Assembly (NCBI GenBank): GCA_000002445.1
Contig: CH464491.1
Location: 544,001-608,000 of the forward strand
Length of the DNA stretch: 64,000 bases
Direction: 5' to 3'
Origin: Trypanosoma brucei
Taxonomy: Eukaryota
The notes below the pieces were generated by a model. The model searched no databases, had not been told where the DNA came from, and saw nothing but the letters and a program-made list of their open reading frames with translations. Within the stretch, counting starts at the first letter, position 1. Each line of letters starts with the position of its first letter. Positions 4,672 through 64,000 of this stretch are shown piece after piece. A program made the translations under genes and the position numbers.

Positions 4672-4928
4672 GAAGTTGCTTAGCGAGGGATGTACTCAAG
4701 GTGGAGTTGAATGAGCAGTAAAATACCGCTGGTAAAGGTTTAATTACCATCACATTTATCTACTTCCCTCTTTTGAGAGCATATGAAGCTGTAAATGCTA
4801 TTTTGTCTCTATAATTTATATTGTGGGTTTTGCCTCCTGACAGCAACAAACCTTATTGTTAATGATATGTTGGTGCTTGTTTGTGTGATATGCTCATTTC
4901 GTATAGGTGCTAGGCTGTTATTACTCTG

Positions 4929-6323: not shown

Positions 6324-6613
6324 GTTACTTCTCAATTGTCTTGTTCCAAATTTAACTTTCGTGGTGTTGTTATTGTACATTTCCCCTTTGTTATCGTGCT
6401 TCTTTTCGGATGTTGTCACGCTATCTTCCATTAATATTCCATGGACGGGGCACCTTAACATTAAGCATGGCTTTTTTCCCTTGAAAATTTTCTATGTTCG
6501 TTGATAACATCTTTTTCAGTCATTAAAATCGCTGTTGTGACAGTTTTATTGTGGTTTATCTTCTTCGTATCGCACATATATACCAAAGGCATCTGACTAG
6601 GCAAGCATCAAAC

Positions 6614-7282
6614 ATGAAGCGTACACGCAATGCTTTGTTGTCATCAGAACTACTATGCAAGGTTATGAAAATTACAGAAGAACCACGCGTTGTGAAAGAG
6701 CTGAGTGATATTTTACTCTTTCCCCGGGTTAAAATAAACTCTTTGCCCTTCGTTCCACCTCCCAAGTGGACTACAGAGCTCAATCGCAGACTGCAGAAGA
6801 GGTTTCCGGAACTTAGCCGGAAGCGACACATTTTATTCACACGTGCATTTATTCATCCTAGTTTTACCGCACCAGAGGCAGCTTCATCGACTATGAATGC
6901 ATCTATTGGGTTGGGCGAGTCCTTACTGCTTTCTGTTGGTGGGCGTTTAGTTGTCAGTATATTTGATGACCTGAGACGTGATGAAGTAATTTCGTTGGTT
7001 TCATTTCTATCCTCCGATGCAGCCCTCAGCCACCTTTTGCGTCACCACTGGGAGTTGGAAGATATGGTATTAACAGATGCATCAGTACAACTGTTCCAAC
7101 CAAAAGCAACGCCCTCTGCCTCTAACATTGTATCGTGGCTGCCAGATCAGAGGGGAAAACAGGTCCCTGATCAGTATTGTGCTGGAGCAGTAAAGGCAGT
7201 GATTGGAGCAGTGTTTTTAGATGGGGGCCTGTCGTTAGCCACGCAGTTCATCTTCCAACACGTTCTTGAGGCACTAGAATAG
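6614..7282 (+). CDS. RNase III-like domain protein (degenerate, probably non-catalytic)
   Basis: C-terminal GAVKAVIGAVFLDGGLSLATQFI resembles the RNase III domain motif AxxAxIGAIYLDxG. The ERLEFLGD catalytic signature is replaced by ESLLLSVGG. ORF-track start 6551 is GTG; the first ATG is at 6614. Confidence 0.55.
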   Translation: MKRTRNALLSSELLCKVMKITEEPRVVKELSDILLFPRVKINSLPFVPPPKWTTELNRRLQKRFPELSRKRHILFTRAFIHPSFTAPEAASSTMNASIGLGESLLLSVGGRLVVSIFDDLRRDEVISLVSFLSSDAALSHLLRHHWELEDMVLTDASVQLFQPKATPSASNIVSWLPDQRGKQVPDQYCAGAVKAVIGAVFLDGGLSLATQFIFQHVLEALE

Positions 7283-7427
7283 TGGTATACATTACGGTTA
7301 GTGCAACGCTGGGTTACTGTCTATTTTGTTCTCAAATATTTTTAAAGAAGAGTTTTCAATGAAGGAGTTGTTTTGCTTATTTACCTATTTCTCTTTTTAT
7401 TTGTTCAATTTTTCCTTTAGAGCTTCA

Positions 7428-8606
7428 ATGAACCACCCTGATGAACTTGAAGGGTCGGCGACCTCTGGGGTTCTCTGCCCACTGACAGCATATGAGGAGG
7501 TTCCCCCGACGAAAACAAGGAGCCAGATAATTAAGGAACAACTGTTAGATTTAGAAAATTACTCGTTCGAAATCCCTGACCGGCCGGAAGGTGATCCGTC
7601 AGGGAAATTGGCCTATCTGGACATGTGTGAACAGCTACACAAGGAGTCATTTATGAAGTTTCCTACCCACAGCGTCGCGAACAGTCTTTGCGAGGGCAAA
7701 GAATCATTGGACGTCAGTTTTTTTGCCCTTGGAAAGAAAGGAAGTGCTGCGTTGGCTGCCGCTCTGCGAGTTAATCTTACAATCAGAAAACTTTCCCTCT
7801 TGAGGAACCACATTACTCCTTCGGGTGCCATGGAGATTGCACGGGCGCTTTCCGAAACGAAGGTAGTCTCCGATCTTGACTTAAGTGAGAACTTGCTGGG
7901 GCTGACAGATGCAGATGATATCCAAGGGGGTGCCGTGGTAGCTGAGTTCCTTAAGCCAGGAAACGTTTTGAAGACGCTATCCCTCCGGGACAACAAGTTA
8001 AGTGACCAGCATGTCACTGAGTTTGCGGAGGCGGCAATCGACAACACTGAATTGCACTCTCTTGACCTGAGCTTCAACAGGATTGGTTACATTGGTGCCA
8101 TTGAATTAGCAAACATTCTTTCTAAGAACGCAGACCTTCAGGAAATAAATCTAGAGTGGAACCAATTTCAAACGATTGGTAGCCGCCATATACTTGCCGA
8201 AGGACTTCTTTTGAACAACACAATCAAGCGCTTCAACATGAGTTGGAATGGATTAGATGATGCTTGTGGGGTGCTTGTAGGTCGTATTATTAGTGAAAAT
8301 GATATTGAAGAGATTGTTGTCGCTCACAATAGAATTGGACCGGCAGGGGCGGAAGCTATCGCAAAGGGACTTCTTAATACATCTGCGCTAACCACACTAA
8401 TCCTGGACGACAATCCCATGCAAAACGAGGGTTGCGCTGCAATTCTTCGTGTCGTCGGGGAGGCAGCTACTCTTACGAACGTTAGCCTTCAGCAATGTCG
8501 ATGTGACTCCAGCGTTGTGCTAGAAGCCGATCGAGTGATGAAGGAGGTTCGCCCGGATTTGGATATCCGAATATCTGAAGGTTGCTGTGCCAAGGTAGTG
8601 ATGTAA
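7428..8606 (+). CDS. Leucine-rich repeat protein (ribonuclease-inhibitor-like LRR)
   Basis: Repeated ~28-residue LxxLxLxxNxIgxxGaxxLaxxL units such as LHSLDLSFNRIGYIGAIELANIL and LTTLILDDNPMQNEGCAAI. The track start (7326) is TTG. The polypyrimidine tract 7381-7420 followed by AG favours the ATG at 7428; an alternative ATG lies at 7359. Confidence 0.7.
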   Translation: MNHPDELEGSATSGVLCPLTAYEEVPPTKTRSQIIKEQLLDLENYSFEIPDRPEGDPSGKLAYLDMCEQLHKESFMKFPTHSVANSLCEGKESLDVSFFALGKKGSAALAAALRVNLTIRKLSLLRNHITPSGAMEIARALSETKVVSDLDLSENLLGLTDADDIQGGAVVAEFLKPGNVLKTLSLRDNKLSDQHVTEFAEAAIDNTELHSLDLSFNRIGYIGAIELANILSKNADLQEINLEWNQFQTIGSRHILAEGLLLNNTIKRFNMSWNGLDDACGVLVGRIISENDIEEIVVAHNRIGPAGAEAIAKGLLNTSALTTLILDDNPMQNEGCAAILRVVGEAATLTNVSLQQCRCDSSVVLEADRVMKEVRPDLDIRISEGCCAKVVM

Positions 8607-16813: not shown

Positions 16814-18466
16814 ATGGCGCAGAGCTGGTTCAAGCGACATCCTCTTGGTATCTATCCGCGTGGTAATGCGAAGAATTTAGATGAGTTGGTCTCCCCGAGG
16901 TTCGGTATTCTCTCAACCCTCCAGTTTGCCAGCAAGGGTCGTGCTGGTAAATGTTGTATTCTTGGATCACAACCAGCAGAAGAGGCGTTTGTTGACGTGA
17001 TGCTCCACCTTCTTTCATTCGTCGCTGTGGATGATATGTGCAGGTTATCGGCTGTATGCACGGGGTGGTATTGCTTTATTCATGCATCAGATGCGTTCAA
17101 ACAGGCCCATGGGTTGCTTTCACCTACGTATACGTGCTTCGAAGGCAGCTGGAAGGAAACAGCCATTCGTCGCTTTATCAAATTACGCTCCAAGCAAAGG
17201 TTAAATACGGCAAAGCGGATGCGTCTGGAGGGTGGTACACCTGGGGTTGGGGAAACTGTGAACTTGTCCCATCGTCCGGTGATGGTGAAGCGCGCCTTTT
17301 ACAATGATCAGTTGTTTCAGGCATGGATGTGCACCATTCTTCCCTGCCACTACCATCTCCGACAATCAAGTATTGCCGGCACCGCAACTGCAAATCGGCA
17401 GCCAAGTGTATTGTCGGCTCGGGGTCGATATCGTAGTCCACTCAAGGAAGTTCCGCGGTGCAGCGGCTTGTCAGTAGACGAGTTCCGCACTCGATTCGAG
17501 GAGACTAATTTACCGGTTATTATAGCAGACGTGGCCACTGAATGGCCTATTTACAAAATATTGCAGGAGAAGTTTGAAAACCTTGCTGTAATGCAGAAAA
17601 AGCTCTTTCGCCCCGGCACGCGTCCTGACGTCCCAATGTGCTGCGAACACACAACCATGAGTGTCGCTGATTATGTTCGGTACGCTCGGGACCAGACCGA
17701 CGAGCGTCCTATCTACCTCTTTGACTCAGAGTTTGGTACTTTTATGGATGTAGAGTCGCTGTACACTGTTCCCGAGTATTTTAGCCGTGATGATTTTTTC
17801 AAGGTTCTTGGTGGTGCGCGGCCCAAGTACCGTTGGATAATTGCCGGACCACGCCGTGGTGGAAGCAGTTTTCATGTGGATCCCAACTATACCAGCGCTT
17901 GGAATGCTAACTTGACAGGGCTAAAGCGGTGGATTCTGCTTCCACCTGGTCACACCCCCGCAGGGGTGTTCCCCAGTGAAGACATGTCGGAGGTTGTAAC
18001 CCCCGTTTCTTTGACGGAGTGGTTGCTGAATCATTACGATGCCACAGTGGAGAAGTGGCGTGACGTTGCGTACGAGTGCGTATGTGGACCAGGGGATATT
18101 ATGTTCATTCCTTGTGGATGGTGGCACTTTGTTATTAACCTGGAGGACTCGGTTGCAATAACACAAAATTATGTGTCAAAGTGCAACCTCTCGAGTGTAC
18201 TGAAGTTTCTCTCTGTCATGAAGTCTTCTATCAGCGGGATTGATGAGGATGTGGACAATTGCGACACGAGCCGAATGGTAGAGACGCGCCGCGCTAACTT
18301 CGCTGAAGAATTTGCCGCGGCGATGCACTTGTCGTACCCCGAGTTGATGCAGACTGTTGCTGGCGAGGCTAAACGTGAGGCAGAGGAACGACATGAGAAA
18401 AAGAAGATGCGAGCTGCTCTTCCGTTGTTGGATGTTGGTAGCAACGGCTTTGCGTTCAGCTTCTGA
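16814..18466 (+). CDS. F-box / JmjC-domain protein (JMJD6-like 2-oxoglutarate/Fe(II) oxygenase)
   Basis: N-terminal F-box-like motif MLHLLSFVAVDDMCRLSAVCTGWY. The JmjC core HVDPNYTSAWNANLTGLKRWILLPPGH ... GDIMFIPCGWWHFVINLEDSVAITQNY closely matches JMJD6 ([20 protein letters not shown] ... [20 protein letters not shown]). Confidence 0.85.
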   Translation: MAQSWFKRHPLGIYPRGNAKNLDELVSPRFGILSTLQFASKGRAGKCCILGSQPAEEAFVDVMLHLLSFVAVDDMCRLSAVCTGWYCFIHASDAFKQAHGLLSPTYTCFEGSWKETAIRRFIKLRSKQRLNTAKRMRLEGGTPGVGETVNLSHRPVMVKRAFYNDQLFQAWMCTILPCHYHLRQSSIAGTATANRQPSVLSARGRYRSPLKEVPRCSGLSVDEFRTRFEETNLPVIIADVATEWPIYKILQEKFENLAVMQKKLFRPGTRPDVPMCCEHTTMSVADYVRYARDQTDERPIYLFDSEFGTFMDVESLYTVPEYFSRDDFFKVLGGARPKYRWIIAGPRRGGSSFHVDPNYTSAWNANLTGLKRWILLPPGHTPAGVFPSEDMSEVVTPVSLTEWLLNHYDATVEKWRDVAYECVCGPGDIMFIPCGWWHFVINLEDSVAITQNYVSKCNLSSVLKFLSVMKSSISGIDEDVDNCDTSRMVETRRANFAEEFAAAMHLSYPELMQTVAGEAKREAEERHEKKKMRAALPLLDVGSNGFAFSF

Positions 18467-27081: not shown

Positions 27082-28056
27082 ATGCCATCCGTTTCCCAGG
27101 AGAAACGTGACTATGAGGATCGCCTCAACGGCTGCCTCACGAAGTACAGCCGTGTGCTCTTCTGCCTGATGGACAATGTTCGCTCGCAGCAGGTGCACGG
27201 TGTACGCCGTGATCTCCGCGGTAAGGGTGAGCTGGTGATGGGAAAGAAGACGTTGCAGAAGAAGATCGTGGAGAAGCGCGCTGAGGGCAACAAGGCCACA
27301 GATGCTGATAAGCTGTTCCACCAGGTTTGCACCGATAAGCAGCTTCTGTGTGGCAACACATCGATGATATTCACGAACAGCGAAGTGTCTGATATCACCA
27401 GCGTGTTGGACAGCCACCGTGTTCAGGCGCCTGCGCGTGTTGGTGCCATTGCCCCATGTGATGTTATTGTGCCCGCCGGTAACACGGGTATGGAGCCGAA
27501 GGCAACGGCGTTCTTCCAAGCGTTGAACATCGCGACGAAGATTTCCAAGGGTACTGTGGAGATTGTGAGCGACAAGAAGGTACTGAGCACTGGTGACAAG
27601 GTGGATAACTCCACGGCGACGCTGCTGCAGAAGCTCGACATCTCACCTTTCTATTACCAGGTCGAGGTGCAATCCGTGTGGGACCGCGGTGTGCTGTTTA
27701 CCCGTGAAGATCTCTCCGTCACCGATGCGGTTGTGGAGAAGTACCTCCTCGAAGGAATCAGCAACATCAGCGCTATGTCACTGGGTGCTGGTATCCCAAC
27801 TGCCGCTACACTGCCGCACATGATTGTCGACGCCTTCAAGACTCTTCTCGGCGCCTCCGTTGCCACGAATTACGAGTTTGAGGAATACGACGGAAAGAAC
27901 CTGCGCACAGCCGCCTTGGAGGGTAAACTCGGTGGTGGCGAAGCTGCTGCCCCCGCCGCTGCCGCTGCTGCCGCCGCCCCCGCCGCCGCTCCCGCTGCCG
28001 CCGCAGCTGAGGAGGAGGAGGATGATGATGACTTTGGCATGGGTGCTCTCTTCTAG
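27082..28056 (+). CDS. RPLP0: 60S acidic ribosomal protein P0 (copy 1)
   Basis: 324 aa with the uL10/P0 N-terminal domain, an Ala/Pro-rich hinge and the conserved P-protein C-terminus [15 protein letters not shown]. Stop codon is TAG. Confidence 0.95.
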
Positions 28057-28313: not shown

Positions 28314-29288
28314 ATGCCATCCGTTTCCCAGGAGAAACGTGACTATGAGGATCGCCTCAACGGCTGCCTCACGAAGTACAGCCGTGTGCTCTTCTGCCTG
28401 ATGGACAATGTTCGCTCGCAGCAGGTGCACGGTGTACGCCGTGATCTCCGCGGTAAGGGTGAGCTGGTGATGGGAAAGAAGACGTTGCAGAAGAAGATCG
28501 TGGAGAAGCGCGCTGAGGGCAACAAGGCCACAGATGCTGATAAGCTGTTCCACCAGGTTTGCACCGATAAGCAGCTTCTGTGTGGCAACACATCGATGAT
28601 ATTCACGAACAGCGAAGTGTCTGATATCACCAGCGTGTTGGACAGCCACCGTGTTCAGGCGCCTGCGCGTGTTGGTGCCATTGCCCCATGTGATGTTATT
28701 GTGCCCGCCGGTAACACGGGTATGGAGCCGAAGGCAACGGCGTTCTTCCAAGCGTTGAACATCGCGACGAAGATTTCCAAGGGTACTGTGGAGATTGTGA
28801 GCGACAAGAAGGTACTGAGCACTGGTGACAAGGTGGATAACTCCACGGCGACGCTGCTGCAGAAGCTCGACATCTCACCTTTCTATTACCAGGTCGAGGT
28901 GCAATCCGTGTGGGACCGCGGTGTGCTGTTTACCCGTGAAGATCTCTCCGTCACCGATGCGGTTGTGGAGAAGTACCTCCTCGAAGGAATCAGCAACATC
29001 AGCGCTATGTCACTGGGTGCTGGTATCCCAACTGCCGCTACACTGCCGCACATGATTGTCGACGCCTTCAAGACTCTTCTCGGCGCCTCCGTTGCCACGA
29101 ATTACGAGTTTGAGGAATACGACGGAAAGAACCTGCGCACAGCCGCCTTGGAGGGTAAACTCGGTGGTGGCGAAGCTGCTGCCCCCGCCGCTGCCGCTGC
29201 TGCCGCCGCCCCCGCCGCCGCTCCCGCTGCCGCCGCAGCTGAGGAGGAGGAGGATGATGATGACTTTGGCATGGGTGCTCTCTTCTAA
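28314..29288 (+). CDS. RPLP0: 60S acidic ribosomal protein P0 (copy 2, identical CDS)
   Basis: Its translation is identical to copy 1. All overlapping spurious ORFs in the other frames are also identical, which implies nucleotide identity. Stop codon is TAA. Confidence 0.95.
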
Positions 29289-31557: not shown

Positions 31558-32026
31558 TTGGTTGGCCGCCTAAGTTAGAAGTTGCGCTCCTTCATCCTCT
31601 TTACTTTTACTTTTTTTCCCCACGGCAGTTGATCCTTTCTTTTATTTTCTCCCGGGCATCCGTGGCGTGCTGGTCACATTTGGTGATTATACAGCGATGG
31701 GATATTTAGTCTTTTTTTTTTTAAATGTTATCTCTACTTTTCATATTCCGCAAGAAGTGCATATAAAGGGGAGGTGACATTGATGACCCTATTTATTTTT
31801 TACACTTTGTTCTTTTCTTCTTTTGCGTGTGTGAACGACATTGACTGGTCGAAGGGTGTCCCTCAAAAATTTGTGAAGTAGAGACATTTAATAAGTGGGC
31901 GAAAACTTACCCAAGAATCAGTAGAGGAGAGAGGGGGAAAAGGTTAATAATAATAATAATAATAATTGCTGGTGCTAGGACTGCATACGGGTATATAATT
32001 AAATATACATATAATTGAAGCGCGCG

Positions 32027-33322
32027 ATGGAGGTGGCTGTGGGGCACGTCCGTCATGTGCCGTGCACGGTACCCGACGATCCTGCGAGCCGTATGAGAGC
32101 TATTCGGGAAATCGTTGCTCGGCACTGTGCGCTTTTCATGCAAAAGGGTGGCGATGTAGGCCGATCTCAATGTGCTTCAAATCTGGGCAATAATATTACG
32201 AGCGGCACGTCAAATGGATTCGATGCAGATCGTTTGCAGGTGGTGGCCTTTTCTGGCGGAATAACGAATGAGATGTACCATGTATACTGCGAAGGATGGG
32301 AGGCCCATTCTGTTGTGATGCGTATCTTTGGAAAGGAGACAGAGCGCGTCATATCCCGTGGGGATGAGCTTTTCTACCAGTCATTATTTATTCCGACTTA
32401 TGTTCGCGGCCAGAACTTTTTAGTTTACCAGTACCTTTATCAGTACGAGCCCCTTCCGTTCGTGGAGATGGTAAAAGAGTACGAAAAGATAGCGCGTGGG
32501 ATTGCCTTCTTCCACGTCCGGGCGACACTTGAGGCAAGAAGTGATTATAGTGTCACCCCCGTCGGTGGGGTGGTCGGCGCGGGTGGCGCAACCGTAGGCC
32601 CAACGAATACCTGTTCGCGCTTCGATTTGGAGGAAAATTATATTGTCCATTCCCTCACCGAGTGGGTGGAGCAGGCCCTTTCGGAGACTGTGCAGGAGAA
32701 GGTGGACGCCACAAAACGGGCGACTTATGCATCTGTAGCGCAACAGCTGAAGGAGGAGGCCCAGTGGCTGCTGCCATTGATGCAGAGGCACTCACCTGAG
32801 TTGGGCGAGAGTACGTGCCACAATGACCTGCTCAGCGGCAATATCATGAGGCAGAAAAGTGATGGCGCACTGAAGATTATTGACTTCGAGTATGCAAAAC
32901 GTAATTACTTTCTGTTTGATATAGCCAATCACTTCAACGAGTACACGGGGCTCGAGTGTGACTACGCCACATATTTCCCCTCTGAGGAGCACATGAAAAA
33001 GTTTGTGACCACTTATATGTGTGCTATGCGGGAGGAGCTCGAAAAACATGCTGAGGAGGCGAAGCGTCGGCAACTAACGGATATTATACCGGGACAGCAG
33101 CATTTCTTCATGTGCGATGTGGGAGGTGTTGAGGGGGATAAGCGGATCCATCGCATGGTTCAGCTTGTCAAACTCCTTACCCTCGCTTCTCACCTAAGTT
33201 GGAGTGTTTGGGCCTTACTTCAGGAGGCGGTGTCGAAGACGGACATGGACTTCCTGCGGTACTCGCAGCTCCGACTGTCGCGGTACCTGGAGACGAGGAA
33301 GGAGTTTAGTGCATCTTCATAA
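32027..33322 (+). CDS. Choline/ethanolamine kinase
   Basis: Brenner phosphotransferase motif HNDLLSGNIM and the choline-kinase motif IIDFEYAKRNYFLFDIANHFNE. Track start is TTG; the first ATG is at 32027. Confidence 0.85.
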   Translation: MEVAVGHVRHVPCTVPDDPASRMRAIREIVARHCALFMQKGGDVGRSQCASNLGNNITSGTSNGFDADRLQVVAFSGGITNEMYHVYCEGWEAHSVVMRIFGKETERVISRGDELFYQSLFIPTYVRGQNFLVYQYLYQYEPLPFVEMVKEYEKIARGIAFFHVRATLEARSDYSVTPVGGVVGAGGATVGPTNTCSRFDLEENYIVHSLTEWVEQALSETVQEKVDATKRATYASVAQQLKEEAQWLLPLMQRHSPELGESTCHNDLLSGNIMRQKSDGALKIIDFEYAKRNYFLFDIANHFNEYTGLECDYATYFPSEEHMKKFVTTYMCAMREELEKHAEEAKRRQLTDIIPGQQHFFMCDVGGVEGDKRIHRMVQLVKLLTLASHLSWSVWALLQEAVSKTDMDFLRYSQLRLSRYLETRKEFSASS

Positions 33323-43226: not shown

Positions 43227-46200
43227 ATGAGCGACTCCATGGGTGAGGGACAGGACCTTGTTCCTATGACCCTTCCGGTGCCGGAGGTTATGCACGTCTC
43301 TGAACTTGATGTTACGGGACCGCTGCAACCTGGTGATGACTGCGCACAGAAGTCGCTCTCGGGTAATCTTCCGGATAAATGCATGTCTGTTTCATTTGCC
43401 AAAAGCTTGAGCGGCGTAGACCTCAGCATTTTGACACGTTCGGCGGGAAATGCGTCTCACACCTCTATCCGAAGTGGCAGTCGTGCGAGGGGGGGCAATA
43501 CAGAATCTTACGAACTCGCTGCTGTCATGGTTAGATCGTACCCACTCATGACCGTTGAGGGAACGGCGTTTTTAAACACAACACGGCCTCCAAGCTCGCT
43601 GGGGGGAACAGAGCCATCCGTGAGTCTTCGGCAAGATGCAGGCAGTCCCTCTGGGGTTGCTACCGACGATGAACCTCTGGGGGAGAGTTGCGTAAACTTG
43701 GCTGAAAGTGGTGAGCACAGTCGGACGTCCGCCAATGTGATGGCAATCGCCACTAGTCTCAAGCGTGCTTGCATGTGGCAGGTCATAATTACAAACTTTT
43801 TAGCGCACCGCGCGTGGATGGAAGCATTTCGCCGAAACAAACTGAGATCAGTTCTTGAGGTGCACCTTCTTCCCGTGATTCTCCGGAGACGTGGTAGAAT
43901 GAATTTGTCAGGACGGTTTACGCGGAGGGTCTGTGTTCAAAAGCCTGAGCTAGTGAGTAGAGATTCGACTGATTTATTGCAAGGCACGTACCTCTACGAC
44001 ACCGTGCCCATCCTAAAGACCTTGAGAAACGTAAAGTTCTGTGAAGCACTTACGGAGACTGTTTTGAAATACCGCTACAGCTGCGGCCAAGCAATAGCAA
44101 GCAGCGGGAATCCGGAGCAGAACGCTTTATATATTCTCGTCTCCGGCAAGTGCGATGCCATCACCCCAGCATCGGAGACAGGTGGAAAGGTGCGACGCCG
44201 ACGTCTCCAACCAGGTGAAACATTCGGTGGGCTATTTGGTGGTAAAGCGATATTCACAGATGTATATAGAGCCATATCTACCTGTGTGGTGTATGTTATT
44301 ACTAGAGAAAAGTTTGAAGAGTTGTTTTCTCAGTACGCTGACAGCAGTATGAAGGAAACATTCCTTGGTGCGTTACGCGACCACGAGATGGTGCGCCTAA
44401 AAAGGTTACACCCTCTACCCCAGTGCATAGCGCGCGTTCCCATATACCGTAAAAGTGAGCAGCTTGCAGGACAGGTCAACGAATACATTAAGGGGTTCAC
44501 ACCATTGGTGCTTTTACAAGGAGATGTGCTCTTTGAGCAGGGAGATCCTCCCGGCGATGTGTTTTGCCTCATTGAGGGGTATGTCCTGCGCGAGCAACTT
44601 GGTCCAGACATGAAGTACGAAAGCGGCACTCGGCAGGTTCTGGCACCGAACGAGCCGAACAATAACTTCGCACTGAGCACGCGGTTCCTGCTATTGGGAG
44701 AGGAGCCGCACATATTGCCGGGTCCGCTGCGCTACCGCTGCACTGTTGCCAGTCGTGCTGCTCTCTTTTTCAAGATCAATAGCGACAGCTTTGTGAATAT
44801 GCTACTGGATGACGCTAGTCTACTCATTAGGCTTCGGCAAAAGTACAAGGAACAACTGCAGCAGTGGATGCGAATTGCTCCCGAGGCACTCAGGCAAGTT
44901 CCCATGTTGGGGGAGATGCCACGACAAAATCTTAATACCATCATTCACGCTGCGGAACCGCGTGTGCTCGAGCGGTACGTTGCTGTGTGTGAGCCAGCTC
45001 GCGTCATCCGGGAGATTTATGTGTTAACGAAGGGCGATGTACGGGACCCGCGTCAATTTGATCATGTGCCAACGCAACCCCCCTCATTACCTCCCACGGA
45101 AAGCGAGTCTGTAGAGGAAGAGGCCGCGGGGAAGCAGCGAAAGGAAAAGGTCACCAAACGTGTGCCCTCCCCACGTGAAAGAAACTCTAAGGCTCAGAAA
45201 ACGGCCCAGCAACCTGTATCGCCGCTGAAGGAAGGCCGTCCGCGGAAAGGAAACAGGTCTGTTGCATCACTCGTTTGCAAATACACCGACGATAATGCAG
45301 TTCAATGGAGTTTTGAAGAGAATACCGAACTGCTGAAGGCTACAATTTATCCCGATGAGCGGCAGGAAATAACACCGCCACTTCCATTAAACCCGGAGAG
45401 GAATATTATCTGCACCATCGGTGGCGGATGGGAAGGCCTTCTACTGGAGAAGTGGCCTACCGGTTGGGAGACGACGACAACGGTGGAACTCTGGGCCATA
45501 CCGACACTGGCCATAAGGACGGAGTTCAACACTTTCCCCAAGGCGGCTCAAAATTCTATTCTTCGTTGCATTGGTGAAGTGCAAATGCGGGAGCTCGATC
45601 TTCCCACCCCGCCGAAGGTGAAGCTTCCACCAATGAGCATCTACACCCCAATCGAAAAGCGGCTAACGAAACCCGGTTTGAATGTTGACAGGGCCCCCCT
45701 TCGTTCACCGCGTAATGTTGGAGGAAGTGGAGCCTCGCACGACCGCTCCACCGCCGGAACCACAAGCAAAATTGGGCGGCAGCAGGCTGATGCTGCAAAT
45801 TCACAATCCAGTTTTACGACGAGGTCGTCGTCATTTTTCTCCGTTGACATCAGCACCGTGAAGCCTCCGCCTTCTGCGCTGACATCCAACAGGGATCCCA
45901 AAACCATGTCACCTAAACCGGCTGCAGTAGACACAAAGGTCCCCACGGTTCCGAAGACCCGCAAACAATTGGCACAGGTAACCGCGGCTGAGTCGGCGCC
46001 TGTTGAACCTCGCAAATCCAAGGCAGTGCCGGCCTCGTTGCTGTTGTTCCAACGGTTTTCCAAGAAAGTGACTGAGGAACCCCCAAAGATCACACCGGAA
46101 CTGCGAGCCATGTATGCTGGAGAGAAACCACAAAAAGGAATTGTACGTGAGTCGCCTCTCATAGAAGCTGACAAGCGACGAAGTCATAGTTGTCTGCCGA

Positions 46201-46568
46201 CGCTGCCCATAACAGCTTCTGCATGGCCGGTGTTGGCTGGAAGGAGGAAGCGGTGGTTTCCGATGGTACCCACGTTTGCACCCCTTCCGGGAACCCTGGA
46301 CAACGCGAACAACAAGGTGGATCCGCCTCATTTGGTCCCTAACACCTCCCACATGGTTATGCGTGAGAAGGGTTATAGGGATGTGCTGCAGTCACAAGTT
46401 GTTTATTTTACTTCGCTAGCAAATAGCAAAGCCTGTGAGGACCCAACGTACCTCTCGGTCTCCCCATGTACAACTGCAAGGTCCCGTTCCTCTCGTCATG
46501 GTGGGTCCACAGCAGCTCACATTGGTGCGGTACTGCCAACGCCTGGCCGGCATGCATACAGCTCTTAG
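43227..46568 (+). CDS. Large protein with tandem cyclic-nucleotide-binding-like (cNMP) domains and S/P-rich C-terminal half
   Basis: Two or three cNMP-binding-like modules: LYILVSGKCDAI...LQPGETFGGLFGGKAIFTDVYRAISTCVVYVITREKFEEL; VLLQGDVLFEQGDPPGDVFCLIEGYVLRE...LLLGEE...RYRCTVASRAALFFKINSDSF. No kinase or other catalytic domain was detected. Confidence 0.6.
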   Translation: MSDSMGEGQDLVPMTLPVPEVMHVSELDVTGPLQPGDDCAQKSLSGNLPDKCMSVSFAKSLSGVDLSILTRSAGNASHTSIRSGSRARGGNTESYELAAVMVRSYPLMTVEGTAFLNTTRPPSSLGGTEPSVSLRQDAGSPSGVATDDEPLGESCVNLAESGEHSRTSANVMAIATSLKRACMWQVIITNFLAHRAWMEAFRRNKLRSVLEVHLLPVILRRRGRMNLSGRFTRRVCVQKPELVSRDSTDLLQGTYLYDTVPILKTLRNVKFCEALTETVLKYRYSCGQAIASSGNPEQNALYILVSGKCDAITPASETGGKVRRRRLQPGETFGGLFGGKAIFTDVYRAISTCVVYVITREKFEELFSQYADSSMKETFLGALRDHEMVRLKRLHPLPQCIARVPIYRKSEQLAGQVNEYIKGFTPLVLLQGDVLFEQGDPPGDVFCLIEGYVLREQLGPDMKYESGTRQVLAPNEPNNNFALSTRFLLLGEEPHILPGPLRYRCTVASRAALFFKINSDSFVNMLLDDASLLIRLRQKYKEQLQQWMRIAPEALRQVPMLGEMPRQNLNTIIHAAEPRVLERYVAVCEPARVIREIYVLTKGDVRDPRQFDHVPTQPPSLPPTESESVEEEAAGKQRKEKVTKRVPSPRERNSKAQKTAQQPVSPLKEGRPRKGNRSVASLVCKYTDDNAVQWSFEENTELLKATIYPDERQEITPPLPLNPERNIICTIGGGWEGLLLEKWPTGWETTTTVELWAIPTLAIRTEFNTFPKAAQNSILRCIGEVQMRELDLPTPPKVKLPPMSIYTPIEKRLTKPGLNVDRAPLRSPRNVGGSGASHDRSTAGTTSKIGRQQADAANSQSSFTTRSSSFFSVDISTVKPPPSALTSNRDPKTMSPKPAAVDTKVPTVPKTRKQLAQVTAAESAPVEPRKSKAVPASLLLFQRFSKKVTEEPPKITPELRAMYAGEKPQKGIVRESPLIEADKRRSHSCLPTLPITASAWPVLAGRRKRWFPMVPTFAPLPGTLDNANNKVDPPHLVPNTSHMVMREKGYRDVLQSQVVYFTSLANSKACEDPTYLSVSPCTTARSRSSRHGGSTAAHIGAVLPTPGRHAYSS

Positions 46569-57311: not shown

Positions 57312-57710
57312 ATGTCCACCTCACATGGCATGCTGATTTACAACAATGATATCACTGCTGATAGCCTTCTGGACACGAAGGACTGCCGTAAAATTGTGGA
57401 GGAAGTGTCCAGTAAGATGCCCAACTCCTCCCTTTTCAAACTGGACAGAGAGGACCACACTTTAGCCAACCTTCTTCGCATGCGATTGCACGAGAACCCA
57501 CTTGTGCATATTGCAGGTTATCGCGTGCCACATCCCACGCAACACCGTGTAGAGCTACGCGTTCAGACATCCTCCGATGGCACCGGAAAGCCCATTCCAA
57601 CTCCGAAGGAAGCACTCCTGGAGGCGGTCGGATCGTGCATGAAAGACCTTGAGGAATTTGAAGGGGCGTTCCTTCGCGAAGCGCAGAGCAAAGGTTTGGA
57701 TGTTGAATAG
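57312..57710 (+). CDS. RPB11: DNA-directed RNA polymerase subunit RPB11 (RBP11/AC19 family)
   Basis: LFKLDREDHTLANLLRMRLHENPLVHIAGYRVPHPTQHRVELRVQT matches POLR2J [47 protein letters not shown]. Confidence 0.85.
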   Translation: MSTSHGMLIYNNDITADSLLDTKDCRKIVEEVSSKMPNSSLFKLDREDHTLANLLRMRLHENPLVHIAGYRVPHPTQHRVELRVQTSSDGTGKPIPTPKEALLEAVGSCMKDLEEFEGAFLREAQSKGLDVE

Positions 57711-58696
57711 GGGGAGCGGTTCTTCCCATCTGTAGCATCAACTCTGATCTCCTCGTGCCTACATGAGTGCACTCGTATATGGCCCAGAGATAAAAGAGTT
57801 TCTGGGGAGTGATGGATAATGGAAGCAGGAGGTATTTCCTTGCAACTCTTTGTCTTTTCCGTTTTCTCCTTCCCTCCACAAAGTTCTCGCGTAGGTGTTG
57901 CTGCGCGTGAGTGCCACGCAGTACGCGTGCAATGGGGTAGGGTTTGCCTAGATGTGCGAATGCCAGTGTGCGATTGAGAGTTGCTTCGTTACCCCTGCCT
58001 CCGTTAGTTGATACTATTTGTGAACCAAGTTCATTTTCCTTTGGCCTATATTTCCATATTCTTGGTGAAGTTGTAGTGCCATTAGTTATCTATAGGAATC
58101 CGCGCATAACTCAGCTGCCGTTGCGCATTTTTTTGGGTTTAGCTTGTTGAGTGAACAAACTATTATCCCTCCGTGCCGCTACCAAATCCACAAGCGAAAG
58201 TGAGGCGCAGAAACTTGTGTTGAAATTGCTGCGTGACTTTTCTTGTTTTTCATTTTGTGCTAAAATATACACAGTAACGGCGCCAATGAGTTGAAGGTGA
58301 TTTAAGTTCGATCTGGATACTCTTGCTTGCAACTCTCGGAACTTTATATGACGGCAATTGTGTTCGTGTGCGCGATCAGGACATGAAAGTGTTCACATGG
58401 AAGCAAGGGTCACGCTACCAAATCATAATTAGTTAAGAGCACACCCTGAAACAAACAGCTATGAAGATAAAAATATATGTTTACGGTTAATATCTGGACT
58501 CACTCAGCGCATACACTGGCGTACCAACAGGTTGTACTTGGCATGCGCTTGATTTGACGTTTATTTGCACTTCCTCTTGTTGGGCGACGCTGCTCTTCAC
58601 CTTGCTACTGCATTTCTAGGTTGTTTTTAGTTCCGCCGGCTTTGTGTGGTTTCTGTTACATCGGTAGCCTTGCGTTCGTGCGGTTGGACGAGTGTG

Positions 58697-61600
58697 ATGG
58701 CTGGAACCCAGGCAGCAGTGGACTACACCAAAGTGTTGGTGAAGAATACAGTAAGGTTCATCCTCTTAGTTCTGTTTCTCATATCTCTCGTTGTCTCGTT
58801 ACTCCTATGCATGCTTGCTGACATCTTTCAAGCCTACGCCCCCGTCTTCCCATTGTGGCCAATGGTTTTTGCGAGCGTTGCGCTAAACGTTGCGTGTGCT
58901 GTTTCGACTTCGTTGTATCATCGAGTAACGTGCAAGGCTTCTCGTTCTTATAAGAGCTCCGGAAGCAACCATGCATATTTGGCAATGCAAGGTTTCGGGT
59001 ACGGTTTGCTTTTTATTTGTCCGGCGGTGCTGTTCTTATATATTGAACTTTTAGCTTCCCCTGTTGCCGTCTACCGCTACGGATTGATAACAGCACTGGG
59101 TGGTTCATGTGCCGTGGCAAATGGGCTATTGATCGCATCTTTGCGGTACTCCGAAAAGACTCAGCGGCGAGTGAAAGAAGGTGGACTTGGGGGAGGCGAG
59201 AGGCCACAGCGCGACTCCGGTCTGTGGAGGAGACGTTTGTTATTGCTTCCAGACGGCGAGACAGCCATTGTCGTTTTGCTTTGTATCATTGCTCTCACGT
59301 GTTCTATTATTGCGGAGTATTTTACGCACCTGCGCCGTGCGTTGACCATTGTGGGCATGTTGCTTCTCGTAGTTAGTGCGGCTATCACTCGTGTTGGCAC
59401 TGGGTATCGGTCTGCTACCGGCGAGCACCCCTTCTCGATCTCTAGGTGCAGCTTCAGAACGGGTATTGTTCAAGGGCTTGGTTGGTTTCTGGGTGGGGCA
59501 ACGTTGTGTTTCGATTTGGTTTTGTGTAATTCAGGTGCGGGCGCACCTCCGTCTTGGCATATCATCAGTGGGTTAAGTTCGATGGTGAGCGTTGCTGCAC
59601 TCCTGTTTGCAAGGTTTCACCGCTTCACAGAACCTACATTCAAACAAGGCTTGCAGTTGTCCAGTGATGGACCCTACGTAATGACAGCAACAAGTCTATT
59701 TCAACTTACTTTTGTGTGGTGTTTAACGTTACTACTATCTACGGAGTACTGCGAACTAGGTATGCAGTTGAGGCAGGGGCTGATTACGTGTCAAACCCTC
59801 ACAGCGGTATCCATGTTTGCCCTGCCTCTTTGCACTCACTTTCTTGGCCGTGTTGTGTTCGGCAAGGAGTACGGAATATGGATAAGTCTTGACTGCCGGT
59901 TAGAATTCGCAATCTTGCAGCGGTTGGCGTGGTTTTGCTACAGCATAGCCATTTTCTTCGCCGTACTTCACATGACGGAGTCCAACCACTTCAGGTTCGT
60001 TGTCATACAGGCCCTACTGGTCGGAGTTTCTCAATGCCTTGTACATGCGTCGCTTTGGGCATTCGGTGGGGGAACATTGGGGAGATATTCAAGCGATGTT
60101 GAAGATCAAGAGTCTTTATCACGTACTACTTCCACCAAATCCACTTCACAGGAGGAAGACTCAGAGGGGGAAGCCTCCGTATCTTATGAGGGCGGTCGCT
60201 CTGCTCTACCTCTAGTACTGAATGCAGAGATGGTCACCGCCATTGCGGTCTGCGTGTGCGGGATTGCTCTTCGGCTTGTTGCCGATGTGGAGTCCATGGA
60301 TGGCGCATTTGTCGGTGCTCTGTTGGGTGTTCCCCGGAAATCGCTTCTGAATCTTGCAAGGGTCATGGCCACTGTTGCGGTACCGCTTGCTCATATTTCA
60401 TCCAGGGACCGTGTTCCTTTGTGGCAGCCATTTGTTGGCTGTGGTGGTTATGTTTCTATGCAAGCGGTGGGGTGGTCCGTTTACGCGATCAATACGTTGA
60501 TTGAGGCCGCCAATTACTTTCATGAGGAACGCCGGAGTCTTGCGTCTCCGGTATTTGGAACTCAATCTATGCCATTGGAACACACAGTGGATGGTGTATG
60601 CGCTACCGTCCCGTTTATTTGCATATTCCTGGGCTCCTTATTTGAAACATGGGCCCAACAAAGCGAGAAAATTCATCAGCGGAAGATGCAACAGAAGATC
60701 GTGGAGCTTAACAGCTTACTACAGCATGTCATTGCCGATCCGGAGGATCGGGAGCGGACGAAGTCACTTTTGAAGGTTGTAATTGGCCCTCGGTGGAAAG
60801 ATTTGAGAAGTAGCGGAAGTTCCGACGAGGACGAACGCGCCGAGGAGGTGGAAACAAGAAAGGAGGGCATGAGAAATATCGTAGCCATTCTCTGCGTCTG
60901 TGTAATGATGTTGTTTGCGACTTCCGCGTTTTCAGCAACGCACCAACCCGCCTTTACACTTATATTCGGGATATCAGGTATGATGATGACGAGTGTATCG
61001 TGTTTTTCGCTGCAACTTTTTTACGGATCGATCGTGCACGGGGCCACCGGAACCTATTCGTACTTTATGCCATTTTCTGGTGGGCAAAAGTTTGTTGCAT
61101 TCCAGACTGCTGGGTGGTCTTGTTACGCGGCTGCACTATTGTTAATTCTAATAAGTTGTCTCGAAGGTCGCGGTTCGCCCACTGCCTTCGTTTGCATGGG
61201 TTTCTTTAGTGTCGCGGCACAGTTTTTGATTTTGAATTCTATTCCGCATTTTGATTCCACTCCGAGACCGGCTTCGTTGTTGGAACAAAATGCGGAAGCG
61301 GCGCTTGCCGTGTTTGCGCTCGTTGGTTCCTTTACTTTTGGTGTTGTATGGAACGCCTACACAGGCGGTGGCATTCCAGGGCAGGCGCCATCCCCGCTCC
61401 CCATTATTGTTACAGCTATTGCCGCATCGTGTGCTGCACCATTGGGAATCGTGTCTTTGAAGCGCCACATGGAGCGTTCCGCCATGTTCGCCGTCGCTGA
61501 TGGACTGGAAAGTTCCTCCGAGGCAAGTGACGGTGAAGAGGAAATACGCAGTGATGGCCACACGGATGCAATCGCCCATGTAAGTAATGGGAGTGGACAC

Positions 61601-63271
61601 CAGTTCCCCTCTTCATTGATGCAGGGCCAAGTAAACACCGGTGTCGACTCGGAGCGAGGGACAAATGATTCCTTCGACACCCAAGCATCCCGCTCCTTTC
61701 CAGGATCCACCGGATCGTTCGGGAGTGGCAAGCGGTGCCGCTCAGTGCAGCACATGGAGGTCATACCGGGCACATTGTACACGATTTGTCTCATTTTGGC
61801 GCTGCTTGCTACACTGATTTGGGTTATATTCGTCCCGATAGTTCTCTTCTATATGTTCTACTCGTACGCCTACAGTGGACTTGCCGTATTTCACATGACG
61901 TTTACGACATTTCACATTGTGTTGTTCCTGCTTTCCATTGCGGTTGTTACCCCGGTGCTCGTCCAAATAATTTACGACAGACGATGTAAGGGTCTTCGGG
62001 GGAAGTTCTGGAGCCCTCTAGTTGCTTTTACTGTGTACTCCCTACCAACAATTGTGGTTTCAACGGTGCTTGTTGTCTGGACTCAGGTGGACACAATGGG
62101 GGCCGAGGTTTTTGCCCTAAACATGGTATTCATGAGTTGCCTTTCGTTCCTTTCGTGTGCTTATCTGGTGGCGTCACTCTTTAACACATGTTTCCTCGGA
62201 TATGTGCTGCACTTTTATCTCTACACATGTTTGGTTCAGGGGTTGGCGCCTCTTGTCGTTTGGAAGTGCGTCACGGACGTCGGGTTTACAGTGTTTTGGT
62301 TGTGGTACTTACGAGGTTACGGTAAGCTCCCTCACATCACTGGATGCATGTGCGGTGCCAAATCGCGGGACTTGTTCCGTACCTATTTATCACCTGCCAT
62401 TGTCGATTACTTCAGTGCGCGTCTTATTGTTGATGGGAGGGGGAAGGCTGGAAGGGGTAAAACGGTTATATACAGTAATTCCGAGGGGGAGGAGGAAAAT
62501 GCTGGACCTGATCACAATGATCCGTCAAACAAATACATTTATTCCTTTCATCCGCATGGTGTTTTCCCCGGCACCGCACTCTGGTTGCCGATGTCACCGC
62601 AGTGGGAGGAACTGATCGGCCGCAACGAGGAGACCATTGTCACAACACACGGTGCAGATGTGATTTTTGCCGTCCCGTTCATGCGTGACGCGCTTATGTC
62701 AGTTGGCACCATGAGTGTATCGAGGAAAGGAATTGAGAACTGTCTTAAGCAAAACAACAGCCCTATTATTGTGACTGGTGGGATGGCGGAAATGGTGTAT
62801 CAGAAGGGTAGTGACACCGAAATGCACATCGTCATGCATCACAGCGGGTTTGTTCGAATGGCTCTGCAGCATGGGGTGCCTATTGTGCCTATCCTTTGTT
62901 TCGCCGAGCAAAATGTAATGATGAATGTTCCCTTTCCACGTCTACAGAGACTCACCTCGAGAAAGCTTGGCTTTCCATTTCCCACAATGCCGTATGGGAG
63001 ATGGTTTCTTCCCCTTCCACATGCACGGCCACTCACCGTAGTGGTGGGTAAACCAATTCTTCCAGATCCTGCGATGTGCAATGCTGATGACCCTGATCAT
63101 GTAGTACACTACAGACTCCGCTATTTTGGTGAATTGCAGCGGCTTTTCTTCAAGTATCGTGATGAAGCCGGATACCCCAACATGGTGCTTCATCTCCACT
63201 GCCACAACGAGACGCATATTGTGACAGAATTTAAAGGGTCGGAATCAGTTAAAGATGATCAAAACCAATGA
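58697..63271 (+). CDS. Giant polytopic membrane protein with C-terminal DGAT2-type (diacylglycerol O-acyltransferase 2/MGAT family) domain
   Basis: C-terminal ~300 aa carry the DGAT2-family signatures FHPHGVF, a GGxxE-type GGMAEM, and RSGFVRMALQHGVPIVP (compare the RxGFVKLAL region). The preceding ~1200 aa contain four blocks of multiple TM helices separated by S/D/E-rich linkers. Track start is GTG; the first ATG is at 58697. Confidence 0.8.
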   Translation: MAGTQAAVDYTKVLVKNTVRFILLVLFLISLVVSLLLCMLADIFQAYAPVFPLWPMVFASVALNVACAVSTSLYHRVTCKASRSYKSSGSNHAYLAMQGFGYGLLFICPAVLFLYIELLASPVAVYRYGLITALGGSCAVANGLLIASLRYSEKTQRRVKEGGLGGGERPQRDSGLWRRRLLLLPDGETAIVVLLCIIALTCSIIAEYFTHLRRALTIVGMLLLVVSAAITRVGTGYRSATGEHPFSISRCSFRTGIVQGLGWFLGGATLCFDLVLCNSGAGAPPSWHIISGLSSMVSVAALLFARFHRFTEPTFKQGLQLSSDGPYVMTATSLFQLTFVWCLTLLLSTEYCELGMQLRQGLITCQTLTAVSMFALPLCTHFLGRVVFGKEYGIWISLDCRLEFAILQRLAWFCYSIAIFFAVLHMTESNHFRFVVIQALLVGVSQCLVHASLWAFGGGTLGRYSSDVEDQESLSRTTSTKSTSQEEDSEGEASVSYEGGRSALPLVLNAEMVTAIAVCVCGIALRLVADVESMDGAFVGALLGVPRKSLLNLARVMATVAVPLAHISSRDRVPLWQPFVGCGGYVSMQAVGWSVYAINTLIEAANYFHEERRSLASPVFGTQSMPLEHTVDGVCATVPFICIFLGSLFETWAQQSEKIHQRKMQQKIVELNSLLQHVIADPEDRERTKSLLKVVIGPRWKDLRSSGSSDEDERAEEVETRKEGMRNIVAILCVCVMMLFATSAFSATHQPAFTLIFGISGMMMTSVSCFSLQLFYGSIVHGATGTYSYFMPFSGGQKFVAFQTAGWSCYAAALLLILISCLEGRGSPTAFVCMGFFSVAAQFLILNSIPHFDSTPRPASLLEQNAEAALAVFALVGSFTFGVVWNAYTGGGIPGQAPSPLPIIVTAIAASCAAPLGIVSLKRHMERSAMFAVADGLESSSEASDGEEEIRSDGHTDAIAHVSNGSGHQFPSSLMQGQVNTGVDSERGTNDSFDTQASRSFPGSTGSFGSGKRCRSVQHMEVIPGTLYTICLILALLATLIWVIFVPIVLFYMFYSYAYSGLAVFHMTFTTFHIVLFLLSIAVVTPVLVQIIYDRRCKGLRGKFWSPLVAFTVYSLPTIVVSTVLVVWTQVDTMGAEVFALNMVFMSCLSFLSCAYLVASLFNTCFLGYVLHFYLYTCLVQGLAPLVVWKCVTDVGFTVFWLWYLRGYGKLPHITGCMCGAKSRDLFRTYLSPAIVDYFSARLIVDGRGKAGRGKTVIYSNSEGEEENAGPDHNDPSNKYIYSFHPHGVFPGTALWLPMSPQWEELIGRNEETIVTTHGADVIFAVPFMRDALMSVGTMSVSRKGIENCLKQNNSPIIVTGGMAEMVYQKGSDTEMHIVMHHSGFVRMALQHGVPIVPILCFAEQNVMMNVPFPRLQRLTSRKLGFPFPTMPYGRWFLPLPHARPLTVVVGKPILPDPAMCNADDPDHVVHYRLRYFGELQRLFFKYRDEAGYPNMVLHLHCHNETHIVTEFKGSESVKDDQNQ

Positions 63272-64000
63272 ACTGGTGATTGTCACAATCGGGGTTCAAT
63301 ACACTCTAATCCTTTCATGCTGTAGTTGTAAGGGGGGAGGTGCAGTGGTGAGCGCTTCGGGTAAGTAAGTACACAAATAATGTAATTTTTTTTTTTCGGT
63401 GAGGGGGAGAGAAGGGGGGGGGGAAAACGCTAGCATGGCGGCCGAGGTTTATTTTTGTAAAAAGCTGGAGTTAAGCCCGTGTGTGTGTGTGTGTGCGGAC
63501 GGTGGCGGCTTTTGTGGCGGTCATGCTGTTTTGTTTCATCGCATCTCCGCGTTTAACTTCTTTTATTTTCTTTTTTTCATTCATTCCTTTCCTATTTTTC
63601 GCCGCCGTTACCACCTCCACCATTTTTGTCCACTTCCCCCAATACTGCCACTGTTAATGTTTGTTCCTCTCCACATCGAAACATCTTCCTGCTTGCATTT
63701 ACTTGTCCCTTATGTTTTGCGCTGCTCTTGTTGTTCATTATTGTGAGGACAGTTGCATATTCATCTCATGTTTCGTTTTTCTTGTGCTGTCGTCCATTAC
63801 TTTTTTGTTTTGTTATGTTTTGTTTGTCTTATTTGTCCTTCTGTTTATTGTTTGTTAACTCTGTTTTTTTTTTCCGTTTTGGAAACAATGCGGAGTTGCC
63901 GCCGAAAGATATTTTTCGCAAGTAGTGTTTTTCATTTTTCATTTTGTGTTTTCTTTCTTTTTTTTTTTGATTGTCTTCTTCTTGTAAATGTCTTGTGTTT

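Follow-up and report, generated by a model that had tools for sequence, protein, structure and literature searches.

A trypanosome DGAT2-family protein fused to a five-fold array of a four-helix membrane unit

We analyzed a 64,000-nucleotide stretch of Trypanosoma brucei DNA (contig CH464491.1 of assembly GCA_000002445.1, positions 544,001 to 608,000; this whole stretch is the window, and position 1 is its first letter). An open reading frame (ORF) near its end encodes a 1524-residue protein with a DGAT2-type acyltransferase domain at the C-terminus. From N- to C-terminus, the protein is composed of five tandem homologous repeats, R1–R5, with 22 transmembrane (TM) helices, an unrelated TM block of about six helices, and the DGAT2 domain. 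The catalytic domain places the protein in the DGAT2 family, in which an undescribed repeat domain gives it a new type of architecture. Residue conservation and predicted topology suggest that the most likely role of the array is that of a lipid-binding or lipid-sensing platform in the cytosolic leaflet. Taken as a whole, we consider it moderately probable that the protein is a DGAT2 core fused to a five-fold TM array acting as such a platform.

The ORF runs uninterrupted on the + strand from the ATG at 58697 to the TGA at 63269–63271 (1524 codons). The frame is open from 58646, with no in-frame ATG upstream of 58697. The translation shows 0 differences from XP_828305.1 (EAN79193.1, Q386T8) of T. 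brucei brucei TREU927, which carries the database name 'diacylglycerol acyltransferase, putative', and 1–8 differences from its counterparts in T. b. gambiense, T. equiperdum, and a Logan assembly. The gene model and name are already public in GenBank and UniProt; the new part is the repeat module. The literature searched contained no study of trypanosome DGAT2 or its N-terminal region, only work on host DGAT or Toxoplasma DGAT1, and a search with the UniProt accession of the T. brucei protein found nothing. The parts of the ORF are listed below with hhalign probabilities and E-values against R5, or with the AlphaFold2 predicted local distance difference test (pLDDT).

58697..63271, + strand: complete ORF, 1524 aa and stop codon, by identity to XP_828305.1
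58766..59170, + strand: R1, aa 24–158, four-helix TM unit, degenerate motif AYLAMQGFGY (99.5%, E = 3.5e-22)
59252..59623, + strand: R2, aa 186–309, four-helix TM unit, motif FRTGIVQGLGW (98.4%, E = 6.8e-15)
59645..60067, + strand: R3, aa 317–457, four-helix TM unit, motif EFAILQRLAW (99.3%, E = 6.7e-21)
60074..60211, + strand: linker 1, aa 460–505, acidic, Ser/Thr-rich, predicted cytosolic (pLDDT <50 at aa 477–500)
60215..60682, + strand: R4, aa 507–662, four-helix TM unit, motif LWQPFVGCGGYVSMQAVGW (98.2%, E = 5.4e-14)
60683..60823, + strand: linker 2, aa 663–709, charged, helical, predicted cytosolic (15 K/R and 16 D/E in the loop 650–727)
60824..61513, + strand: R5, aa 710–939, four-helix core and two TM helices, motif YSYFMPFSGGQKFVAFQTAGW followed by S848 and F852 (pLDDT ~90)
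61514..61759, + strand: linker 3, aa 940–1021, Ser/Gly/acidic-rich, disordered, with M1020 at its end (pLDDT <50 at aa 945–1021)
61763..62326, + strand: TM block 6, aa 1023–1210, about six helices, unrelated to the repeats (hhalign against the unit 0.2%)
62522..63175, + strand: DGAT2 catalytic domain, by the PF03982 match at aa 1276–1493
62549..62560, + strand: HPHG motif, aa 1285–1288, histidine block of the DGAT2 active site, by motif reading and family alignment

The repeat unit is a four-helix bundle of about 130–150 residues with the signature [WF][QM]PFxGGxxF[VI]xLQxxGW...SxxxF, to which R5 adds two further helices. R5 is the best-conserved unit, and most homologue matches fall on aa 720–930. 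A hidden Markov model (HMM) built from the aa 710–939 region of 34 other species, with T. brucei left out, matches three other parts of the protein in register, at aa 24–157 (R1, 12.3 bits), 338–456 (R3, 17.3 bits), and 513–610 (R4, 21.6 bits), and R2 weakly (5.8 bits). The best of 200 local shuffles scored 7.0 bits, and the reversed sequence gave nothing. Alignments seeded from R1, R2, R3, and R4, none of which overlaps the R5 segment, were then compared with the R5 alignment by hhalign; all four were matched with probabilities of 98.2–99.5%. As a negative control for the possibility that hydrophobic helices match anything, TM block 6 (aa 1020–1215) was included, and reached 0.2%. No internal repeat was seen when the protein was compared with itself by BLASTP (word size 2, E ≤ 10); pairwise comparison is too insensitive for this array, and profiles are required.

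A preliminary description of this DNA had proposed about four TM bundles, possibly internal duplicates of one another, joined by acidic, serine-rich linkers. The duplication is borne out by the five homologous units, and the linkers are found at aa 460–505, 663–709, and 940–1021. The bundle count agrees with hydropathy, which gives blocks at aa 1–460, 505–650, 725–925, and 1025–1210, but homology resolves these into five repeats and one unrelated block. Ahead of the catalytic domain, Kyte–Doolittle hydropathy detects about 24 hydrophobic segments, and the AlphaFold2 secondary structure about 28 helices of membrane length. TM block 6 was considered as a sixth degenerate repeat and rejected on its hhalign probability. 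This block is shared with a 541-aa relative (P0002), which aligns to T. brucei aa 1047–1501 and may be shortened by its 1,712-nt contig.

Between T. brucei and Bodo, R1, R3, R4, and R5 are orthologous position by position, so the five-fold array predates the kinetoplastid radiation. It is within kinetoplastids only that repeat-by-repeat orthology with T. brucei is established.

Across 386 repeat instances, conservation concentrates on a small set of residues (R5 numbering). Helix 1 ends in an acidic residue and helix 2 contains G777. The loop between helices 2 and 3 contributes Y787, [WF]790, [QM]791, P792 (336/386), F793, G795, and G796, and the start of helix 3 contributes F799, V800, Q803 (352/386), G806, and W807 (328/386). 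S848 (329/386) and F852 are located at the end of helix 4. With the exception of the acidic residue of helix 1, the strongly conserved positions lie in the predicted cytosolic-leaflet half of the bundle.

This pattern bears on the idea of an inert array, without a specific ligand, that works as an oligomerization spacer or membrane anchor and serves only to keep the enzyme in the bilayer of the endoplasmic reticulum (ER). Such a role would fit the generic four-helix bundle fold and a catalytic core that can exist without the array, as described below for Leishmania tarentolae. We nevertheless regard it as quite improbable, given that the glutamine, tryptophan, serine, and proline of the signature are strongly conserved over several supergroups and that the conserved residues all lie on one leaflet, a constraint far beyond the needs of an anchor.

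The distribution of positive charge gives a consistent predicted topology. Counting by loop parity over the predicted helices, 61 Lys and Arg residues are found in the loops on the side of the N-terminus and 10 in the opposite loops. By the positive-inside rule, and with 28 helices (22 in the array and about six in TM block 6), the N-terminus, the three long linkers, the five QPFxGG loops, and the DGAT2 domain are presumably all on the cytosolic side. DGAT2 active sites face the cytosol.

AlphaFold2 models were calculated from 52-sequence alignments. The model of aa 1–960 has a mean pLDDT of 77.7 and a predicted template modeling score (pTM) of 0.65, and that of aa 700–1524 has a pLDDT of 84.1 and a pTM of 0.74, with low confidence in the linkers only. 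Values of pTM this high are not expected of independently placed bundles, and we infer that the five bundles pack against one another in a defined way, as does R5 against the TM block and the DGAT2 domain. With both models, Foldseek found no PDB match below E = 0.08, and TM-scores stayed near 0.1 (best 0.10); sequence and profile searches of the PDB gave no credible match (best E 0.049, to FtsX). Among solved folds, only generic four-helix bundles resemble the repeat unit.

Some known membrane modules offer a conceptual analogy only, with no similarity of sequence or fold detected. With the sterol-sensing domain of HMG-CoA reductase and SCAP and with domains of the PGAP2/Frag1 type, as here, a multi-helix membrane module is attached to a cytosolic domain that has a catalytic or regulatory role; MARVEL shares the feature of a four-helix TM unit able to occur in tandem. 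MARVEL (PF01284), Frag1/DRAM/Sfk1 (PF10277), Mpv17/PMP22, and the sterol-sensing domain are absent from the Pfam matches of the T. brucei protein and, at E ≤ 1, from those of 37 diverse members carrying the array.

The same searches weigh on a transporter-like function, which had been put forward in the preliminary description and found no support in them. In this scenario, the array would be a transporter, flippase, or scramblase that supplies or removes lipid substrates of the enzyme, such as diacylglycerol (DAG), fatty acids, or acyl-CoA. It would explain why 22 TM helices are predicted as one compact domain, why conserved polar residues (Gln, Ser, and acidic residues) lie in or beside helices, and why the array is paired with two different lipid enzymes (see below). 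No transporter family, such as MFS, ABC, RND/SSD, or LeuT, is matched by the 37 members in Pfam at E ≤ 1, however, and neither the profile search nor the Foldseek search of the PDB provides a candidate. Five separate four-helix bundles with a conserved site in a single leaflet are also unlike an alternating-access architecture, and the fusion of the array to F-box domains is hard to reconcile with transport. We therefore consider this function unlikely.

The repeat unit is known in Euglenozoa, stramenopiles, and a choanoflagellate. A Pfam scan of the 37 members found DAGAT in 10, Abhydrolase_3 in six (with BD-FAE and Say1-like signals), and F-box-like domains in five. The repeat region itself matches no Pfam family (2025 copy) in any of the 37, even at E ≤ 1. 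Representatives outside the kinetoplastids are the following.

Array and Abhydrolase_3: P0070 of the choanoflagellate Salpingoeca urceolata, 1559 aa (transcriptome); P0063 and P0099, metagenomic
Array and F-box-like domain: P0089 of the oomycete Thraustotheca clavata, 1325 aa (genome); P0061 and P0106
Two repeats and DGAT2: the raphidophyte Chattonella subsalsa, 755 aa

In the Abhydrolase_3 and F-box fusions, the same 5–6 tandem units with the motif WQPFxGGxxFVxLQxxGW precede a cytosolic effector, which is an HSL-type esterase/lipase or an F-box domain, whereas in T. brucei it is DGAT2. Larger members were also recovered (P0035, 2762 aa; P0091, 2200 aa; P0043, 2005 aa; P0047, 1989 aa). One of these, P0091, has five repeats starting only from about aa 700 and no DGAT2 match. 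Further domain combinations with the array probably exist.

With these fusions to lipases and F-box proteins, a scaffold or acyl-acceptor channeling role, which had also been suggested beforehand, becomes somewhat more plausible. They bear as well on the possibility that the array is a regulatory sensor of membrane lipids, comparable to a sterol-sensing domain, which switches the effector and uses the Ser-rich linkers as phosphorylation hinges. In favor of a sensor, one array occurs on effectors of opposite sense, namely DGAT2 for synthesis, Abhydrolase_3 for hydrolysis, and F-box domains for the targeting of ubiquitin ligases; the disordered linkers are acidic and Ser-rich; and the conserved site is located at the boundary of the cytosolic leaflet. 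On the other side, there is no similarity to the SSD, Patched, or INSIG families. The proposal also overlaps with the lipid-binding platform that we favor, binding and sensing being inseparable in silico. As a separate explanation, a dedicated sensor appears doubtful but worth keeping in mind.

The C-terminal domain is a genuine DGAT2 module with intact HPHG and GGxAE motifs. Pfam DAGAT (PF03982) matches aa 1276–1493 with E = 3.6e-25 and 88.9 bits (cut-off 22), in agreement with the assignment made in the preliminary description. The motifs FHPHGVF (aa 1284) and GGMAEM (aa 1361) are present as it had listed them; the third, at aa 1382, had been written RSGFVR with a wrong first letter and is in fact HSGFVRMALQHGVPIVP. 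The sequence at this position reads HSGFVRMALQHGVPIVPILCFAEQ, and the xGFxxxA...VP...F[GA]E blocks are present. The catalytic role of HPHG is established for the DGAT2 family. Residues P1286, H1287, G1288, R1330, G1361, G1362, E1365, G1384, and P1398 are invariant in 52 family members.

Canonical DGAT2/MGAT enzymes (mammalian DGAT2, yeast Dga1, and algal DGTTs) have in common with the T. brucei protein the PF03982 match, HPHG, GGxAE, and the xGFxRxAxxxGxPxVP...F[AG]E blocks. Within these blocks, T. brucei has His in place of the usual Arg or Lys before GF, and FAE in place of FGE. The larger difference is at the N-terminus. The canonical members recovered here are 319–388 aa long with a short N-terminal hairpin, while the T. 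brucei protein places some 1210 aa and about 28 predicted TM helices ahead of its catalytic domain; it lacks the DGAT2 trait of a short N-terminal part made of a hairpin or of one or two TM helices. This confirms the contrast in length drawn earlier, and the architecture indeed falls outside the Pfam description of the DGAT2 family. When the T. brucei DGAT2 domain was used as a phmmer query, repeat-fused proteins scored 115–430 bits and canonical short DGAT2s 63–79 bits; the fused enzymes therefore form a DGAT2 sub-family of their own. The window protein is the T. brucei member of this distinct sub-family, which is found across Euglenozoa.

A fusion of this kind raises the question of whether the TM region and the DGAT2 domain belong to one polypeptide. 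Word-index searches for homologues, with the full protein or with an alignment as query, recovered nothing beyond the query's own cluster. An exhaustive phmmer search of 1.84 billion representative proteins with aa 1–1200, by contrast, yielded 97 matches at E ≤ 1e-3, including 26 with E ≤ 1e-30. Most are 1300–1900 aa long and have the DGAT2 domain at their C-terminus, as located by phmmer with the catalytic domain. The long form is kept in frame with DGAT2 in at least eight named species, from Trypanosoma to a diplonemid, including the following.

Trypanosoma: T. grayi XP_009310952, 1570 aa; T. vivax CCC52738/KAG8346269, 1500/1540 aa; T. conorhini XP_029231092, 1447 aa
Other kinetoplastids: Leptomonas pyrrhocoris XP_015659438, 1913 aa; Strigomonas culicis EPY26988, 1596 aa; Bodo saltans CUG91922, 1552 aa
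Diplonemid: Namystynia karyoxenos, 1347 aa

The trypanosomatid and bodonid orthologues (1447–1913 aa, 'diacylglycerol acyltransferase, putative') contain the same five repeats, TM block, and DGAT2 domain. They differ from T. brucei only in the length and sequence of the linkers, and their N-terminal region is unannotated in all cases.

Within T. brucei, Logan contig L001, from a second strain, covers the entire ORF. The two ORFs differ by 22 synonymous and 7 non-synonymous changes, of which 16 and 6, respectively, fall in aa 1–1020. Five of these six replacements are located in linkers; the repeat cores are therefore under purifying selection. The conservation of the long architecture, together with this selection, argues for one gene encoding a single 1524-aa integral membrane polypeptide, in which the N-terminal ~1200 residues, a polytopic membrane region as in the preliminary description, are conserved.

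The ORF contains a single pyrimidine tract of at least 12 nt, at 63005–63018, which lies within the DGAT domain and codes for FLPLP. No window of at least 85% pyrimidine is present in nt 61450–61760, before the in-frame M1020. The boundary between the TM region and DGAT2, singled out beforehand as the place where two genes might meet, shows no stop codon, no pyrimidine tract of at least 12 nt, and no loss of conservation. Upstream of the ATG, one candidate processing signal can be read from the sequence.

58561..58630, + strand: pyrimidine-rich stretch (80% pyrimidine windows) with AGs at 58618–58619 and 58629–58630, candidate spliced-leader acceptor region

The AGs of this candidate are 67–78 nt upstream of the ATG. 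Together with the lack of a strong internal tract, the candidate would be compatible with one trans-spliced mRNA for the whole ORF. The first letter of contig L001 falls at 58627, 8 nt past a candidate AG, and the last at 63332, 61 nt past the stop codon and exactly at the first G-run; these ends, which may be mRNA ends or assembly breaks, were not counted as mRNA ends. Two G-runs (63333–63340 and 63403–63424) and a (TG)8 microsatellite (63480–63495) follow the stop codon.

An annotation artefact would require the relevant product to be a short DGAT2 starting near M1020, with the upstream part belonging to a separate gene or remaining untranslated. The in-frame Met at aa 1020 could serve as its start, the 541-aa relative P0002 begins at T. 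brucei aa ~1020–1047, and L. tarentolae has a 387-aa DGAT2 without an upstream array. P0002, however, may be cut short by its contig, and an open frame of 4.6 kb that is kept in frame with DGAT2 in other species, carries repeats under purifying selection, offers no strong pyrimidine tract before M1020, and is spanned by one contig from another strain makes two genes highly improbable.

The L. tarentolae protein (BLBS01000037.1; L002 8001–9164) aligns only to T. brucei aa 1192–1505. A tblastn search of the 4 kb upstream of its gene (3900–8000) found no array match, even when the query was a 1662-aa relative sharing 69% identity in the DGAT domain. A frameshifted array in this position was also considered and rejected, as the 4 kb contain neither a long ORF nor a tblastn match. 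In at least one lineage, therefore, the catalytic protein can exist without the array, and L. tarentolae looks as if it had lost the array in its own lineage or encoded a short paralogue.

These observations can be combined into a possible mechanism for the fused protein. At the cytosolic face of the ER, the DGAT2 domain, judged by family membership, would transfer an acyl group from acyl-CoA to DAG or a similar neutral-lipid acceptor. The array would offer five conserved interfacial pockets in one leaflet, which may bind, present, or gauge the lipid substrate, and would hold the C-terminal effector at the bilayer, DGAT2 in this case and an HSL-type alpha/beta-hydrolase or F-box domain in other eukaryotes. 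Hairpin-type DGAT2 relocates onto the lipid-droplet monolayer. Because 28 helices would preclude such a move, the T. brucei enzyme would be confined to the ER bilayer.

Several points weigh against this picture. A DGAT2 catalytic core can apparently exist without the array, as in L. tarentolae. The packing of the repeats and the contact between array and DGAT2 are read from pTM alone, and the function of the array is deduced only from the domains with which it occurs, from where the conserved residues lie, and from the predicted topology. The sequence does not discriminate between DAG, monoacylglycerol, a fatty alcohol, or a sterol as the acyl acceptor. Finally, some of the non-kinetoplastid members come from transcriptomes or metagenomes, in which contamination is possible.

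As a more general proposal, which we advance tentatively and at less than even probability, the four-helix unit may be an undescribed, ancient eukaryotic membrane domain that senses or binds a neutral-lipid precursor such as DAG in the cytosolic leaflet and has repeatedly been wired, as a five-fold array, to effectors that make lipids, break lipids, or mark proteins for degradation. If the unit senses such a precursor, triacylglycerol synthesis in trypanosomes would be locked to the ER bilayer and gated by substrate.

This DGAT2-family protein is an obvious candidate for the enzyme that completes triacylglycerol synthesis and for lipid-droplet formation in T. brucei. About two thirds of it consist of a conserved, unannotated membrane unit repeated five times, which is also present on lipases and F-box proteins of distant eukaryotes. 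The unit defines a new domain family, open to profile building and searching, and suggests the testable idea that the coupling of neutral-lipid enzymes to the bilayer works either by presenting or sensing their substrate or by keeping them in the ER. The architecture of the parasite enzyme is very unlike that of host DGAT2, which matters for selective inhibition.

All 24 ORFs of at least 250 aa in the window are on the + strand, the pattern expected of a trypanosome polycistronic unit, and the window is part of one such unit. The cumulative GC skew climbs steadily along positions 1–64000. About 1 kb upstream of the DGAT2 ORF, 57312–57710 (+) encodes a 132-aa RNA polymerase subunit of the Rpb11/AC19 type (RNA_pol_L_2, E = 1e-23). 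The spacer between the two (57711–58696) is of unusual length, with a strong pyrimidine tract at 57856–57877. A gene for choline/ethanolamine kinase, a lipid-synthesis enzyme, is located at 32015–33322 (+; PF01633, E = 4e-45), about 25 kb upstream of DGAT2. The presence of both in one transcription unit is probably a coincidence, because trypanosome transcription units are not functional operons.

Elsewhere in the window, a tandem gene pair at 27082–28056 and 28314–29288 (+) encodes 100% identical copies of a 324-aa ribosomal protein P0 with the domains Ribosomal_L10, RL10P_insert, and 60s acidic. A 550-aa JmjC/Cupin_8 protein is encoded at 16814–18466 (+), with an F-box-like signal at aa 61–90 that remains below threshold (20.4 bits, cut-off 24.3). 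The 1113-aa protein encoded at 43227–46568 (+) has no Pfam match over most of its length and carries a cyclic-nucleotide-binding domain at aa 283–370.

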